NCBI RefSeq assembly: GCF_054482525.1
Contig: NZ_CM137006.1
Reading direction: 5' to 3' (one strand)
DNA length: 64,000 nucleotides
Made by a program: the position numbers and the translations under genes. The notes beneath the pieces were generated by a model. That model worked only from the letters and a program-made list of their open reading frames with translations, was not told the origin of the DNA and did no database searches. This document shows positions 17,719-27,103 of this stretch, in pieces (the stretch's first letter is position 1; every line of letters starts with the position of its first letter).

Positions 17719-17982
17719 ATGATCGATCTGGAAAACCAGGAACGGGAGATTATCAATTTAATGTTCAGCCAGGGTATATCCTGGATAACTGCCGTGCGTA
17801 TCAGGCATAAACTATCACTTGCTGAAGTAAGTAAAATGTTAGGTATCTCCATTAATTCTCTAAAACAGATCGAAAAGACGGAACGGCTTAGTTCAAACAT
17901 CAAAAGCAAAATGGCAGGAATTTATGGTTGTCCACCAGAGTTGCTGATATGCCCTTCCTGGATGACGGCTGAACATAAATGA
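17719..17982 (+). CDS. small HTH (XRE/Cro-like) DNA-binding protein, strain-specific; sits where K-12 has yjjJ (hipH)
   Basis: 87 aa; HTH-like segment ...ISWITAVRIRHKLSLAEVSKMLGISINSLKQIEKTE...; strong RBS AAGGAAGGA; local sequence is AT-rich. Confidence 0.5.
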   Translation: MIDLENQEREIINLMFSQGISWITAVRIRHKLSLAEVSKMLGISINSLKQIEKTERLSSNIKSKMAGIYGCPPELLICPSWMTAEHK

Positions 17983-21593: not shown

Positions 21594-22373
21594 TTAGTAG
21601 CTGCTGGCGCTCTTACCGTCGCCGTGGCCCAGAGCCTTCAGCAGGCTTGCCAGCAGGCTGGAAGCGCCAAAGCGGTAGTGACGCGCATCGGCCCAGTCAG
21701 CGCCGAACAGTTCATCGGCGATGGCGAGATATTTCTGCGCATCTTCCGCAGTACGCACGCCGCCCGCCGGTTTGAAACCAACGGTTTTTTCTACGCCCAT
21801 ATCACGGATCACTTCCATCATGATGCGCGCGCTTTCCGGCGTCGCGTTCACTGCCACTTTACCGGTAGAGGTTTTGATGAAGTCAGCACCCGCTTTGATG
21901 GAGATTTCAGACGCTTTACGGATCAGCGCTTCGTCTTTCAGTTCGCCGGTTTCGATGATCACTTTCAGCAGTACGTTAGCCGCAGCGCAAGCCTCTTTAC
22001 AGGCTTTCACCAGGTCAAAACCAACCTGCTCGTTACCCGCCATCAGCGCACGGTAAGGGAACACCACGTCAACTTCATCGGCACCGTAGGCGATTGCCGC
22101 ACGGGTTTCTGCCAGCGCGATTTCGATGTCGTCGTTACCGTGTGGGAAGTTGGTTACCGTAGCGATACGGATTTCCGGGGTACCCTGCTCTTTCAGCGTT
22201 TTGCGAGCAATTGGGATAAAGCGAGGATAGATACAGATAGCGGCGGTATTGCCGACCGGAGTTTTGGCCTGATGACACAGAGCAATTACTTTCTCGTCGG
22301 TGTCGTCGTCATTCAGGGTGGTCAGGTCCATCAATTTCAGTGCACGCAGGCTGCTTGCTTTCAGATCAGTCAT
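21594..22373 (-). CDS. deoC: deoxyribose-phosphate aldolase DeoC
   Basis: ORF 21594..22397; [39 protein letters not shown] start at codon 9; AGGAGA RBS. Confidence 0.93.
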
Positions 22374-22416: not shown

Positions 22417-22433
22417 TTGTTAGTATTCTAACA
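22417..22433. promoter_or_regulatory. DeoR operator O2 (TGTTAGTATTCTAACA) at deoP2; approximate
   Basis: 16-bp near-perfect palindrome ~45 bp upstream of deoC start; matches DeoR consensus TGTTAGAA-TTCTAACA. Confidence 0.7.
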
Positions 22434-22630
22434 TCTACTCCGCAACACACTTCGATATACATCACAATTAAGGAAATCTACTTACAAGTTTGCATCACTG
22501 TAATGCGATCTGGTTCAAATAATTCACTTTCAAATGAATGCGTCAGTGGTGGCAAACGCATCAGGATCAAAGTGAACATCACGAAACTTCTTACAATGGC
22601 GCATCACCTTCGGCATAAAAGGAAAAGAAG

Positions 22631-24181
22631 ATGCCCACTTCTCATGAAAATGCACTGCAACAACGTTGCCAGCAAATTGTCACCAGCCCGGTACTTAGCC
22701 CGGAGCAGAAGCGCCATTTTCTGGCACTGGAAGCAGAAAACAATCTGCCTTATCCGCAGCTTCCTGCCGAAGCCCGCCGCGCGCTGGATGAGGGTGTAAT
22801 CTGCGATATGTTTGAAGGTCATGCGCCGTACAAACCGCGCTATGTCTTACCCGATTACGCCCGTTTTCTGGCGAACGGTTCCGAATGGCTGGAGCTGGAA
22901 GGCGCGAAAGATCTTGATGATGCACTCTCTCTGCTGACCATTCTTTACCACCACGTACCGTCGGTCACATCGATGCCGGTCTACCTGGGGCAACTGGATG
23001 CGTTGTTGCAACCATATGTTAGAATTCTAACACAAGACGAGATCGATATTCGAATAAAACGTTTCTGGCGTTACCTCGACAGAACCCTGCCAGACGCCTT
23101 TATGCACGCCAATATCGGCCCGTCTGATTCGCCCATCACCCGTGCAATCTTACGTGCAGATGCAGAGCTGAAGCAGGTTTCACCGAACCTGACCTTTATC
23201 TACGATCCTGAAATCACCCCTGATGACCTGCTGCTGGAAGTGGCGAAGAACATCTGTGAATGTAGCAAACCGCACATCGCCAACGGTCCGGTGCATGATA
23301 AAATTTTCACAAAAGGGGGCTACGGGATTGTGAGCTGTTACAACTCACTGCCGCTGGCGGGTGGTGGCAGCACGCTGGTACGCCTTAACCTGAAAGCCAT
23401 TGCCGAGCGCAGCGAATCGCTGGATGACTTCTTTGCGCGCACTCTACCGCACTACTGCCAGCAGCAGATCGCCATCATCGATGCGCGGTGTGAATTCCTC
23501 TATCAACAATCACACTTCTTTGAGAATAGCTTCCTGGTGAAAGAAGGGCTGATTAACCCTGAACGTTTTGTGCCAATGTTTGGCATGTATGGGCTGGCGG
23601 AAGCGGTTAACTTGCTGTGTGAGAAAGAAGGGATTGCCGCGCGCTACGGTAAAGAAGCCGCCGCAAATGAAGTGGGTTATCGCATCAGCGCGCAACTGGC
23701 GGAGTTTGTCGCCAATACCCCCGTGAAATATGGCTGGCAAAAACGCGCCATGTTACACGCACAGTCGGGGATAAGTTCCGATATCGGCACCACGCCGGGC
23801 GCACGTTTGCCGTATGGCGATGAGCCAGATCCGATCACCCATCTGCAAACTGTCGCCCCGCATCATGCTTATTATTATTCCGGCATCAGCGACATTCTGA
23901 CGCTCGACGAAACCATCAAACGTAATCCGCAGGCGCTGGTACAGCTTTGCCTCGGTGCCTTTAAAGCCGGAATGCGTGAATTTACCGCCAATGTCAGCGG
24001 TAACGATCTGGTTCGCGTTACTGGTTATATGGTGCGTTTGTCGGATTTAGAAAAATATCGCGCCGAAGGTTCACGTACCAACACCACCTGGCTGGGCGAA
24101 GAAGCAGCACGCAACACTCGTATTCTGGAACGCCAGCCGCGCGTGATAAGCCATGAACAGCAGATGCGCTTTAGTCAGTAA
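22631..24181 (+). CDS. yjjI: YjjI, glycine-radical-enzyme-like protein of unknown function
   Basis: 516 aa [47 protein letters not shown]... Confidence 0.85.
23017..23032. promoter_or_regulatory. DeoR operator O1 (perfect TGTTAGAATTCTAACA) at deoP1, inside the yjjI coding sequence
   Basis: perfect 16-bp palindrome exactly 600 bp upstream of O2; spans yjjI codons 129-134 (YVRILT). Confidence 0.7.
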
Positions 24182-25016
24182 GATTATCCCCTTCTCCTGC
24201 GTTGACGGGCCAGGCAGTCGTCTGGCTCTGTTTTTGCAGGGCTGCAATCTGCGCTGCAAAAACTGTCACAATCCGTGGACGATGGGACGCTGCAATGACT
24301 GCGGGGAGTGCGTGCCACAGTGTCCGCATCAGGCGTTGCAGATTGTTGACGGCAAAGTGGTGTGGAACGCTGTGGTCTGCGAGCAGTGTGATACCTGCCT
24401 GAAGATGTGTCCGCAACATGCCACGCCAATGGCGCAATCCATGAACGTGGACGAGGTGCTTAGTCACGTTCGCAAAGCGGTGCTGTTTATCGAAGGGATA
24501 ACGGTGAGCGGCGGCGAAGCCACGACCCAGCTGCCGTTTGTGATGGCGCTGTTTACTGCCATCAAAAACGATCCGCAATTGTGCCATCTCACCTGTCTGG
24601 TGGACAGTAACGGTATGTTGAGCGAAACCGGCTGGGAAAAATTGCTCCCGGTGTGCGACGGCGCAATGCTCGATCTCAAAGCGTGGGGGAGCGAATGTCA
24701 TCAGCAATTAACCGGACGCGATAATCAGCAGATTAAGCGCAGCATCTGTTTGCTGGCAGAGCGCGGTAAGCTGGCGGAACTGCGTTTGCTGGTAATCCCT
24801 GGCCAGGTGGATTATTTGCAACACATCGAAGAACTGGCGGCGTTTATCAAGGGAGTCGGCGATGTTCCGGTACGCCTGAACGCGTTTCATGCCCACGGCG
24901 TGTATGGCGAGGCGCAAAGCTGGGCGAGCGCCACGCCGGAAGACGTTGAGCCGTTGGCTGATGCGTTACGGGAGCGCGGGGTGAGCCGCTTAATATTCCC
25001 GGCGCTGTATTTGTGA
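24153..25016 (+). CDS. yjjW: YjjW, radical SAM glycyl-radical-enzyme activating protein with extra Cys-rich (ferredoxin-like) region
   Basis: 287 aa ORF; CxxxCxxC-type motif [13 protein letters not shown], second Cys cluster [15 protein letters not shown]...[12 protein letters not shown]; overlaps yjjI 3' end. Confidence 0.8.
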
Positions 25017-25132: not shown

Positions 25133-25912
25133 CTACGGCACGTTAAACAACGTATATGTATTATTTAGCAACGCTTGCGCAATCTCATCCGCTGGTTCCG
25201 GACGCAACTCGCAAAGCACGTCAAACACCCGCGCGGCCTGTTCCGGGCGGTTAGGCTGCCCCTGAAAACCGTTGAGCGGCATATCCGGCGCGTCGGTTTC
25301 CAGCAACAACGATGCCAGCGGTAATTTTGCGATGACATCGCGGGTTTTACTGGCGCGTGGATAGGTGATAGTACCGCCTACGCCGATTTTGTAGCCCAGC
25401 TGTACAAACCGTTCGGCCTGTTGCAGGCTGCCGGAAAAACCATGAACCACGCCAGAGCGCGGCAAATCGTGGAGTTTAAGATGCATCGCGAGTTTGTCGT
25501 GCGTGCGTCGTGAATGCAGGATCACCGGCAGATCGTAGCGTTTCGCCAGTTTCAGTTGTTCGTCGAGTAACCACTGCTGCCTCTCAAATTGCGGATCGTC
25601 GCCGAAGAGATCCAGACCGATCTCCCCCACCGCCACCACCTTCGCCGGACGCCTTTCCAGCGCCTGCTGTAGCTGATCAAGAGACACATCGCTATGTTTT
25701 TCCAACATACCAGGATGCAAGCCCAATGCGGCATACAGCGGTTGATATTTTTCCGCTAACGCCTGCACGCGGGCAAAATTTTCCGCCTCGGTTGCCGGAA
25801 CAATGATCTTGCCTACGCCCGCTTGTGCCGCGCGTTGCAGGCTGGCCTCTTCATCGCCACTAAACGGCGGGAAATCAAAATGGCAGTGGGTGTCGATAAA
25901 ACAGCAAATCAA
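25133..25912 (-). CDS. yjjV: TatD-family metal-dependent hydrolase/DNase YjjV
   Basis: 259 aa ORF MICCFIDTHCHFDFPPF...; TatD HxH motif. Confidence 0.88.
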   Translation of the reverse strand: MICCFIDTHCHFDFPPFSGDEEASLQRAAQAGVGKIIVPATEAENFARVQALAEKYQPLYAALGLHPGMLEKHSDVSLDQLQQALERRPAKVVAVGEIGLDLFGDDPQFERQQWLLDEQLKLAKRYDLPVILHSRRTHDKLAMHLKLHDLPRSGVVHGFSGSLQQAERFVQLGYKIGVGGTITYPRASKTRDVIAKLPLASLLLETDAPDMPLNGFQGQPNRPEQAARVFDVLCELRPEPADEIAQALLNNTYTLFNVP

Positions 25913-26982
25913 GCCAGATCCTCATTGTTAAATGTCGGGTCGTTCGCCTGCGGAGCATCGCTCACTTCGGCAACCAGCGTATCGTTGGCGACTGGCGCAG
26001 GCGGAATGACAATCGATTCCGGCGTCACCACTGGCACCAGATGGCGGGTTAGCGGCGCTTTTTCAGTTAATAGCTTGCCAACCGTTGCCAGGAAATAACG
26101 ACCGCATAAACGCCCAAGTTTATAGTCTTCACGCAGCGCCGGAATCCGACTGCCAAGCGCGATACTATGCAATGGCTTCGGCGGATAAATTTCGAATATC
26201 CGCAGTTTGCCCGGTGGTTTCTCAATAAATTGCTGAATGTCACGATAGCTGGTTTCATGATGCTGCACCAGATTGACCAGCGGCTGCAGGCTACTGTCAC
26301 CCAGCCAGCGTTCCATGCGTTTGAACCACTGCGGCGTGTAGTACATTTGCGACGGCACGGTGCGGATGACGACCAACGTTTTAGCGCCCTGCCTTGCCGC
26401 CTCTTTAACCGGAATCGCATCACTGATCCCGCCATCCAGGTAGTTAATGCCTTCCAGCGACACTCCGCTACGATAAAAGCCAGGTATCGCACTGGAGGCG
26501 CGAATCACATCCAGCCAGTTTTGTTTGGTTGGTAAAAAGTAATTCGGCGCGTAGTCATCCTGACGACAGGCGCACATATAAAACGATTTGCCGCTGTCAA
26601 ACAACCGCGCGGCGGTGTCCATTTGCAACGGCATCTGGCTTGCGGTGGCCTCCACCAGCCAGTCGAGATCGATAAGATTTCCTCCACGGACAAAGCGCAA
26701 TGGATCGAAAAATTCGCGTTTTGTGGTATAGCGCATGATGACTTTGCGCGCGTAACCGGGCTGATTGCAGATATACGCCGAGAGGTTCTGCGCCCCGGCA
26801 GATGTGCCAAGATAAAGATCGAAAGGATTAAACTGCGCGCGCATAAACTCATCCAGCACGCCAGCCGTGAAAATTCCACGCTGTCCGCCGCCTTCGCACA
26901 CCAGAGCTATTCGTCCAGGCTGGAACGGCCTTAGCGACAACGGCGCAATATTACCAAGCGTTACAGGTATTCGCTGCCCCAC
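25909..26982 (-). CDS. yjjU: patatin-like phospholipase YjjU (GTG start inferred; ORF extends to 27018)
   Basis: RIALVCEGGGQRGIFTAGVLDEF...GTSAGA patatin motifs GGGxRG and GxSxG. Confidence 0.85.
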   Translation of the reverse strand: MGQRIPVTLGNIAPLSLRPFQPGRIALVCEGGGQRGIFTAGVLDEFMRAQFNPFDLYLGTSAGAQNLSAYICNQPGYARKVIMRYTTKREFFDPLRFVRGGNLIDLDWLVEATASQMPLQMDTAARLFDSGKSFYMCACRQDDYAPNYFLPTKQNWLDVIRASSAIPGFYRSGVSLEGINYLDGGISDAIPVKEAARQGAKTLVVIRTVPSQMYYTPQWFKRMERWLGDSSLQPLVNLVQHHETSYRDIQQFIEKPPGKLRIFEIYPPKPLHSIALGSRIPALREDYKLGRLCGRYFLATVGKLLTEKAPLTRHLVPVVTPESIVIPPAPVANDTLVAEVSDAPQANDPTFNNEDLA

Positions 26983-27103
26983 CTCTGCCTTCCTGTTTTT
27001 GTTGTGAAAGAATGACAAAGTAACGCAATTTATTATTCGCTAAAACCGCAAAAGCCAGTCCGCTGGACTGGCTTTGGATAAAATTTTCTTAATGGTCTGA
27101 AAT

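Follow-up and report, generated by a model that had tools for sequence, protein, structure and literature searches.

A possible nucleoside- or pentose-related role for the glycyl-radical enzyme pair YjjI-YjjW, encoded next to the deo operon of Escherichia coli

Which reaction is catalyzed by YjjI, a glycyl-radical-type enzyme that is encoded together with its activase YjjW in Escherichia coli? To our knowledge, this pair is the sole glycyl-radical system of E. coli K-12 without an assigned reaction. We addressed the question using a stretch of E. coli DNA of 64,000 nucleotides (contig NZ_CM137006.1 of RefSeq assembly GCF_054482525.1). We call this whole stretch the window, and coordinates are positions in it unless a locus number is given. 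An earlier annotation of the window (the original prediction) had noted that yjjI-yjjW lies divergent from the nucleoside-catabolic deo operon, and took this as a hint at an anaerobic role related to nucleosides or sugars. Our tentative proposal is that YjjI is an anaerobic glycyl-radical enzyme acting on a polar substrate derived from a nucleoside or pentose; here we infer that the radical is formed, what type of reaction it drives and what the substrate is. The motifs, predicted fold, activase pairing, gene neighbourhoods and layout of regulatory sites are results of the present analysis, while activation by FNR and anaerobic induction are taken from the literature.

By every sequence and fold criterion that we applied, YjjI is very probably a glycyl radical enzyme, and it is predicted to form the radical. 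The protein matches Pfam family PF11230 (E-value 2e-220; 732.5 bits, cut-off 23) and, over residues 11-504, the NCBIfam model TIGR04040 (787.7 bits, cut-off 498.3), a family of which E. coli yjjI is the namesake. Among 1.84 billion representative sequences, the family comprises 540 clusters at 50% identity, many of which are fragments. Members occur in Enterobacterales, Orbaceae, Vibrionaceae, Shewanella, Psychromonas and Moritella, and also on a high-GC actinobacterium-like contig and in an archaeon. When 26 diverse members are aligned, the residues G83, G120, D123, L174, C236, E305, G418, R462 and G465 are invariant. The C-terminal glycyl radical motif RVxG[FWY] is present as RVTG465Y. C236 is the only invariant cysteine of YjjI, both in this alignment (26/26) and in a set of 71 sequences (71/71), and the nearby residues S235 and N238 are nearly invariant. 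A search of PDB sequences with the single YjjI sequence detected no relative, and a profile search gave weak superfamily matches only. The latter aligns YjjI YGVVS235-C236-YN with YAIAC418-C419-VS of pyruvate formate-lyase (PFL), R251-L-N253 with R435-A-N437, and RVTG465Y with IRVSG734Y. The structural model confidently predicts the ten-stranded alpha/beta barrel common to ribonucleotide reductases, and its closest matches are the class III ribonucleotide reductases and enzymes of the PFL type. The short glycyl-radical-type enzyme that had been predicted at this locus is therefore upheld by the family models, the RVTG465Y motif and the invariant C236.

The partner protein is likewise of the type that was predicted, namely a radical-SAM (S-adenosylmethionine) activase with additional cysteine clusters. 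YjjW scores 397 bits against TIGR04041 (cut-off 250), and also matches Radical_SAM (4e-13), Fer4 dicluster models, the PFLE_PFLC subfamily TIGR02494 (2e-38) and the hydroxyproline dehydratase activase model (1e-40). Besides the cysteines of the radical-SAM motif (C31x3C35x2C38) and two Cx2Cx2Cx3CP motifs, the segments D18-G-P-G-S-R23 and G120-G-E122, the SAM-binding GGE, are conserved in the activase alignment. At each of the loci inspected, from E. coli to the archaeon, yjjI is followed by an activase gene. The YjjW-family activases of the archaeon and the actinobacterium-like contig are 247-250 aa long and have no ferredoxin insert, so the auxiliary clusters are not essential to the family. 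In one Moellerella-like genome, the activase (locus L101, 11557-12398) was called at 221 aa, with a start inside the second ferredoxin motif after a gap of 175 nt, and the called protein therefore has no Cx3Cx2C motif. A frameshift or a pseudogene may account for this, or the start may have been mis-called.

The yjjI and yjjW reading frames are genuine genes, and neither is due to chance. Across 17 genera of Enterobacteriaceae, invariant sites make up 0.66, 0.76 and 0.08 of codon positions 1, 2 and 3 in yjjI, and 0.46, 0.61 and 0.06 in yjjW, which indicates that both proteins are under purifying selection. The 2.8-kb yjjI-yjjW region is 100% identical to that of E. coli PCN033. At least 80% of this region is found in 5,422 of 5,426 complete E. 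coli genomes, in agreement with the conservation that had been stated for the species. In these genomes yjjI, yjjW and deoC are annotated, the first two as 'YjjI family glycine radical enzyme' and 'YjjW family glycine radical enzyme activase'. The pair is thus already catalogued (PF11230/TIGR04040 and TIGR04041), and its existence is not novel. As predicted, yjjI runs into the start of yjjW, and the 29-nt overlap likely couples their translation. The overlap measures approximately 26-29 nt in enterics; elsewhere, there is an overlap of a few bases or a short gap.

The statement that the substrate is not established also agrees with what we found in the literature, in NCBIfam and among PDB sequences. 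No biochemical assignment for YjjI or YjjW was found in the full-text literature, with subscription-only papers outside our reach, and a full-text search of recent papers on glycyl-radical enzymes gave no biochemical study of YjjI. Nor did the searched literature contain a report of an EPR doublet or of O2-dependent backbone cleavage for YjjI. NCBIfam (June 2026) types both TIGR04040 and TIGR04041 as 'hypoth_equivalog'.

We therefore turned to the genes that accompany the pair. In the annotated gene order, deoD-deoB-deoA-deoC (minus strand) is followed by yjjI-yjjW (plus strand) and then by yjjV-yjjU-ytjA-osmY-prfC (minus strand). The start codon of deoC is at 22373 on the minus strand, which leaves a divergent deoC-yjjI spacer of 257 bp. 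In a comparison of 80 genome loci, deoCABD is divergent from yjjI in all Enterobacteriaceae and Hafnia loci. In 8 Gilliamella loci, yjjI-yjjW closes a same-strand cluster deoB-deoD-nupG-add-cpdB-cdd-pdp, to which ushA is added in most; the products include a NupG-type permease, adenosine deaminase, cytidine deaminase and pyrimidine-nucleoside phosphorylase. Orbus sturtevantii has the order deoD-nupG-cpdB-cdd-pdp-ushA-yjjI-yjjW on one strand, with 53 bp ahead of yjjI. In the Moellerella-like genome of Morganellaceae, whose YjjI shares 82% identity with the Moellerella protein, a gene for a NupC-family transporter lies 70 bp upstream on the same strand. No plus-strand terminator-like site was seen between ushA or nupC and yjjI in the Orbaceae and Moellerella-like loci. 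In Haemophilus influenzae Rd, published locus tags run consecutively as HI0518 (deoD), HI0519 (nupC), HI0520 (radical SAM) and HI0521 (YjjI), and in H. influenzae type f, one 3.1-kb segment holds YjjI, the radical SAM protein and NupC (PMC5609409). Two further homologue searches for a Pasteurellaceae locus gave only Vibrionaceae/Shewanella and Orbaceae/Enterobacterales, so the H. influenzae arrangement is taken from published papers.

Thus, yjjI-yjjW is found beside genes for nucleoside uptake or catabolism in four arrangements, namely those of Enterobacteriaceae and Hafnia, of Orbaceae, of the Moellerella-like genome and of H. influenzae, an observation that is new here. The link to nucleosides is real, but only three orders, which are related to one another, show it. 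That the genes directly beside the pair differ speaks for something beyond inherited gene order, although it does not prove a function.

A second line of evidence is the entanglement of yjjI with the regulation of deo. The divergence from deo with shared promoter space, as originally described, is confirmed by the spacer, and the deo sites extend from the spacer into yjjI itself. A scan of the entire window for the DeoR palindrome, with 0.12 matches expected by chance, found 2, which correspond to operators O1 and O2 and lie exactly 599 bp apart. O1 keeps its place among the yjjI codons in all loci of Enterobacteriaceae and Hafnia, and loci without an adjacent deo lack it. Over the whole of yjjI, 7.7% of third codon positions are invariant among the 17 enteric genera. 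Only two regions have six-codon windows in which at least 5 of 6 third positions are invariant: O1 (23012-23038) and the end that overlaps yjjW. O1 is a clear case of protein-coding sequence that doubles as a repressor-binding site for a neighbouring operon. A third, OE-like site also lies in yjjI, and its distance of 279 bp from O1 is that of deo OE. The assignment of this site is weak. A closer OE variant occurs at the same offset in Superficieibacter, and no extra synonymous constraint was detected at the OE-like site among the 17 enteric genera. The presence of the deo operator O1, and probably of OE, inside the yjjI frame, with O1 constraining synonymous sites, is new here.

The spacer also contains conserved blocks for two CRP sites of the deoP2 promoter. 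We take the CRP-2 site to be that of the CytR/CRP-regulated deoP2 promoter. The sequence TGTGATGTATATCGAA, which is the reverse complement of CRP-1, is the site reported for yjjI/deoC by chromatin immunoprecipitation sequencing (ChIP-seq) of CRP in enterotoxigenic E. coli, and a second CRP peak, with site CGTACCGTCGGTCACA, was reported within yjjI of enterotoxigenic strain H10407 at coordinate 5129400 (PMC4287617). This second peak is approximately 540 bp from the intergenic CRP-1, near the deoP1/O1 region.

An alignment of the spacer among 15 enteric genera further suggests how yjjI itself might be expressed. A -10-like hexamer of the form TA(C/G)A(A/C)T is kept in all 15 genera and predicts a transcription start site at approximately 22604. 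An FNR half-site, whose GGATCAA (22564-22570) is invariant in the same genera, would be centred approximately 41 bp upstream, in the classic class II geometry. This predicted, conserved FNR-type promoter of yjjI is new here, and is consistent with several published observations. A ChIP peak of FNR was found at yjjI together with FNR-dependent activation (PMC3688515); by our own conversion from U00096.2, this peak corresponds to approximately 22538 in the window, about 25 bp from the predicted box. In a study of the HU regulon, yjjI was classed as FNR-activated and strongly HU-dependent (PMC2634741), and in Yersinia intermedia, anaerobic induction was 4.3-fold (PMC3792023). In 20 non-enteric loci, consensus scoring of the 250 bp ahead of yjjI gave no convincing FNR site, and we accordingly dropped the idea of family-wide FNR control. 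We also sought a riboswitch or other RNA as a clue, and Rfam had no match in the region ahead of yjjI, neither in the window nor in seven loci of other genera. The predicted yjjI promoter appears to lie inside the O1-O2 DeoR loop, and deoP1 would fire antisense through approximately the first 400 nt of yjjI. With a promoter inside the loop and an antisense deoP1, coupling to deo could be positive or negative.

Table. Positions of the yjjI-yjjW genes, their motifs and regulatory sites, and associated features. L-numbers denote loci of the neighbourhood comparison, with positions in those loci.
Feature	Position	Strand	Remarks
yjjI coding sequence	22631..24181	+	516 aa, ATG start; YjjI-family glycyl radical enzyme; from open reading frame (ORF) list
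yjjW coding sequence	24153..25016	+	287 aa, ATG start; radical-SAM activase; from ORF list; TIGR04041, E 5e-119
Overlap of yjjI 3' end and yjjW 5' end	24153..24181	+	29 nt; coordinates from ORF list
S235-C236-Y237-N238 codons, putative thiyl-radical (Cys) loop	23333..23344	+	S235-C236 aligns with PFL C418-C419
R462-V-T-G465-Y466 codons, glycyl radical motif	24014..24028	+	R462 and G465 invariant, 26/26
YjjW C31-x3-C35-x2-C38, radical-SAM [4Fe-4S] motif	24243..24266	+	kept in all full-length activases aligned
YjjW ferredoxin-like insert, two Cx2Cx2Cx3CP motifs (C47-C57, C76-C86)	24291..24413	+	Fer4_9, Fer4_7 and Fer4 at residues 44-90
DeoR operator O2, TGTTAGTATTCTAACA	22418..22433		1 mismatch to palindrome; conserved in spacer alignment
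deoP2 CRP-1 site, TTCGATATACATCACA	22451..22466		conserved block, 15 genera
deoP2 CRP-2 site, TGCGATCTGGTTCAAA	22504..22519		conserved block, 15 genera; ~92.5 bp upstream of predicted yjjI transcription start site
Predicted FNR half-site box, CGCATCAGGATCAA	22557..22570	+	GGATCAA invariant in 15 enteric genera; consensus score 7/10
-10-like hexamer TACAAT, predicted yjjI promoter	22592..22597	+	TA(C/G)A(A/C)T kept in all 15 genera
DeoR operator O1, perfect, TGTTAGAATTCTAACA	23017..23032		16-bp palindrome in yjjI codons 129-134 (YVRILT)
OE-like third DeoR operator, TGATAAAATTTTCACA	23296..23311		yjjI codons 222-228; 4 mismatches; 279 bp from O1; weak assignment
REP-type (repetitive extragenic palindromic) element, Rfam naRNA4, RF02564	25055..25133		75.7 bits, gathering score 59.5; in convergent yjjW-yjjV spacer
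LysR-type regulator	L095 12469-13425; L096 12441-13451; L097 12454-13425; L091 10466-11362	-	convergent to yjjW

From these features, the following model of function can be proposed. Together, yjjI and yjjW would make up a self-contained glycyl-radical enzyme system that is expressed anaerobically. YjjW, which has one [4Fe-4S] site for SAM binding and two sites for ferredoxin-type clusters, would cleave S-adenosylmethionine reductively and take a hydrogen from Gly465 of YjjI. From the stable radical on Gly465, a thiyl radical would then arise at Cys236, the residue at the finger-loop tip within the ten-stranded barrel, and this second radical would take a hydrogen atom from the substrate. The reaction may be a redox-neutral radical elimination or lyase reaction, and not ribonucleotide reduction or acyl transfer of the PFL type; we favour this type because there is a single invariant cysteine, no reductant within the enzyme itself, no Cys-x-Glu motif and no second cysteine of the NrdD type. 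Most of the conserved residues of YjjI are polar or charged (Y71, D75, Y76, D123, H159, N186, K213, N218, N238, R251, N253, E305, H376 and Q378), which would fit a polar, probably anionic, small-molecule substrate. The gene neighbourhoods lead us to favour a substrate derived from a nucleoside or pentose phosphate. This would be a pentose or deoxypentose phosphate, or a nucleoside, and YjjI would be an anaerobic side branch of deo/nup nucleoside scavenging. That the substrate belongs to the nucleoside- or pentose-derived compounds is possible, but we do not give it better than even chances. In its most specific form, which we consider rather unlikely, YjjI would found a third lineage of glycyl-radical barrels, apart from both the PFL-like enzymes and NrdD. 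As in ribonucleotide reductases, hydrogen abstraction would lead to loss of an adjacent hydroxyl, with the pentose of either a nucleoside or a pentose phosphate as the target. It would thereby provide enteric and related bacteria with an oxygen-independent branch of nucleoside catabolism, which in Enterobacteriaceae would be wired to deo by the DeoR O1-O2 loop and a shared CRP/CytR site, and turned on by FNR.

It is important to consider the observations that weigh against a nucleoside- or pentose-derived substrate. There are no nucleoside genes within 10 kb of yjjI in Vibrio, Photobacterium, Shewanella, Proteus and Providencia, nor in a Xenophilus-labelled genome, the actinobacterium-like contig, the archaeon and several metagenomic contigs. 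Loci of Vibrionales and Alteromonadales carry a conserved LysR-type regulator instead. In Proteus, the neighbours of the pair are serB and ytjB, two genes located just past deo in E. coli. Since Enterobacterales, Orbales and Pasteurellales are related, part of the nucleoside linkage may be inherited synteny. Published co-expression places yjjI in a bicluster with narG and nitrate-respiration genes, and not with deo (PMC3228777). Antisense transcription from deoP1 into yjjI would speak for interference no less than for co-regulation. The conserved residues are presumed to line an active site, an assumption drawn from their conservation. Finally, we found no experiment of any kind on YjjI in the searchable full-text literature. 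The hint at nucleosides, which originally came from one genome, is thus strengthened by neighbourhoods in other lineages and by the deo operators inside yjjI, and weakened by most of the distant family members. Because these members show no linkage, a nucleoside role is still something that we infer.

Several of these observations would be expected if YjjI were a genuine glycyl radical lyase with a substrate other than a nucleoside, e.g., a common small anion such as a 2-oxo or hydroxy acid. The proximity to deo and nup genes would then be inherited gene order in one gammaproteobacterial branch, and the pair would be a stand-alone two-gene cassette. We regard this explanation as a real possibility, though one that we would not expect to hold. 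Beyond Enterobacterales, Orbales and Pasteurellales, conservation is limited to the enzyme and its activase, and the dedicated LysR regulator is linked to the pair in Vibrionaceae and Shewanella. The serB/ytjB flanks in Proteus fit a simple loss of the deo block, and the co-expression with narG-type genes of anaerobic respiration also favours it. In addition, YjjI R251 aligns with PFL R435, and in PFL this arginine binds the carboxylate of pyruvate. However, the gene next to the pair varies from lineage to lineage (deoC; pdp or ushA; nupC upstream; nupC beside yjjW), which is hard to explain by pure inheritance. Another point against it is the split within Morganellaceae, where nupC is 70 bp upstream in one genome and there is none in Providencia and Proteus. 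Moreover, the replacement of PFL C418 by S235 excludes acyl transfer of the PFL type.

A quite improbable explanation is that YjjI is a slimmed-down relative of the class III ribonucleotide reductases and reduces the ribose 2'-hydroxyl of a nucleoside, nucleotide or ribose phosphate with formate or another external reductant, and feeds deoxyribose to DeoC or to salvage of DNA precursors. Among the YjjI relatives, 16 of 26 match Pfam NRDD, with a best E-value of 3e-15. However, the E. coli protein scores 11 bits on this model, under the cut-off of 26.2 bits, and 16 of 26 members match Pfam PFL-like as well, so the kinship with NrdD is not exclusive. YjjI has no Pfam match to the ATP-cone and lacks the C-terminal four-cysteine zinc site. 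The position of NrdD C175 aligns with the Cys-free motif PRY-VLPDY (hhalign probability only 64%, with an approximate register), and YjjI members have no second invariant cysteine, whether of the C175 type or as a reducing pair. Furthermore, E. coli already has NrdDG. Lastly, a non-catalytic or decaying pair, either a radical 'spare part' like GrcA or a relic kept for the deo sites inside it, is highly improbable, since, although O1 and probably OE would by themselves conserve that DNA and the literature we found reports no phenotype, the codon-position conservation of yjjI reflects protein-level selection along its full length and not on operators alone, the Gly and Cys motifs are intact in taxa without a deo neighbour, including the archaeon, YjjI is a full 516-aa barrel and not a C-terminal fragment like GrcA, and its expression is FNR-regulated (PMC3688515).

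If the nucleoside- or pentose-derived substrate is correct, YjjI would carry out a radical step of nucleoside or pentose metabolism that does not depend on oxygen, and the chemistry of a distinct branch of the glycyl-radical and ribonucleotide-reductase fold would be defined. Since nucleosides are a carbon source in the gut, such a step would be relevant to gut colonisation; yjjI is core to E. coli and widespread among facultative anaerobes of the gut and the sea. Should the lead fail, the pair remains an ordinary orphan enzyme. What is added here to an old question is a testable nucleoside lead, which is now based on comparative evidence and not on a single adjacency.

The ligand of the LysR regulator of Vibrio and Shewanella could also point to the substrate of YjjI. 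This gene is convergent with and directly after yjjW in Vibrio, Shewanella, Photobacterium and one relative, with 47-69% identity between loci. It has no curated family name, and its best weak matches are BsrA, LelA and YidZ. In Aliivibrio, the LysR gene is displaced 8 kb from yjjW by an insertion. In Aliivibrio sifiae, the intervening 8-kb block (L075 12512-19771) contains gluconate/Entner-Doudoroff genes and genes of a beta-glucoside phosphotransferase system, and an ISL3-family transposase is just upstream of yjjI (L075 8662-9630). We judged the block to be an unrelated insertion.

Downstream of yjjW in the window, the spacer to yjjV is 116 bp, compared with 419 bp in K-12 MG1655, so its repeat content is strain-variable. 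The genes yjjV and yjjU (25133-27018, minus strand) are core genes that are kept with yjjI-yjjW throughout Enterobacteriaceae, on the opposite strand. YjjV belongs to the TatD family of hydrolases and matches QatD, the nuclease of Qat defence (2e-26), and YjjU is a patatin-like phospholipase with weak matches to effector lipases of the CBASS type. PADLOC models gave no match to YjjI or YjjW. We rejected a role in a defence system, given this lack of a match and because the weakly matching YjjV and YjjU are core genes on the opposite strand. On the other side of deo, the annotated content of the lplA-deoD interval (approximately 17719-17982) is a single helix-turn-helix gene of 264 bp. K-12 has the far longer yjjJ between lplA and deoD, which would make the interval a strain difference.

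Finally, we compared the pair to known glycyl-radical systems. Like the activases of the PflC/PFLE_PFLC, HypD and CutC types, YjjW has DGxGxR, Cx3Cx2C, two Cx2Cx2Cx3C motifs and GGE. However, it is under the cut-offs of the equivalog models for these activases, and has its own model in TIGR04041. NrdG, in contrast, lacks the double-ferredoxin insert of YjjW. The enzymes differ likewise: YjjI is 14-17% identical to NrdD and approximately 200 residues shorter than the 712-aa E. coli NrdD. Its glycyl radical motif is RVTGY, while that of NrdD is RRVCGY. The zinc cysteines of class III NrdD are C644, C647, C662 and C665, near G681, whereas YjjI has no cysteines beyond residue 440. We rejected a residue-by-residue mapping onto E. 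coli NrdD, in which the hhalign probability was 64% and the Cys loop was mis-registered, and derived no substrate-binding residues from it. Compared with PflB, YjjI lacks roughly the first 250 residues and has Ser-Cys (S235-C236) in place of the adjacent catalytic pair Cys418-Cys419, and the E. coli protein is under the thresholds of Pfam PFL-like and Gly_radical. The motif Cys-x-Glu is a mark of the glycyl-radical 1,2-eliminases CutC, glycerol dehydratase, HypD and IslA. Enzymes with this motif (PflD, YbiW, CutC, glycerol and propanediol dehydratases, HypD and IslA) are approximately 760-850 aa long and belong to a Pfam family separate from that of YjjI, which has C236-Y237-N238 at this position and whose invariant glutamate, E305, sits elsewhere in the chain. 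Because YjjI thus differs from NrdD, from PFL and from the Cys-x-Glu enzymes in the features specific to each, we place it in a separate lineage.

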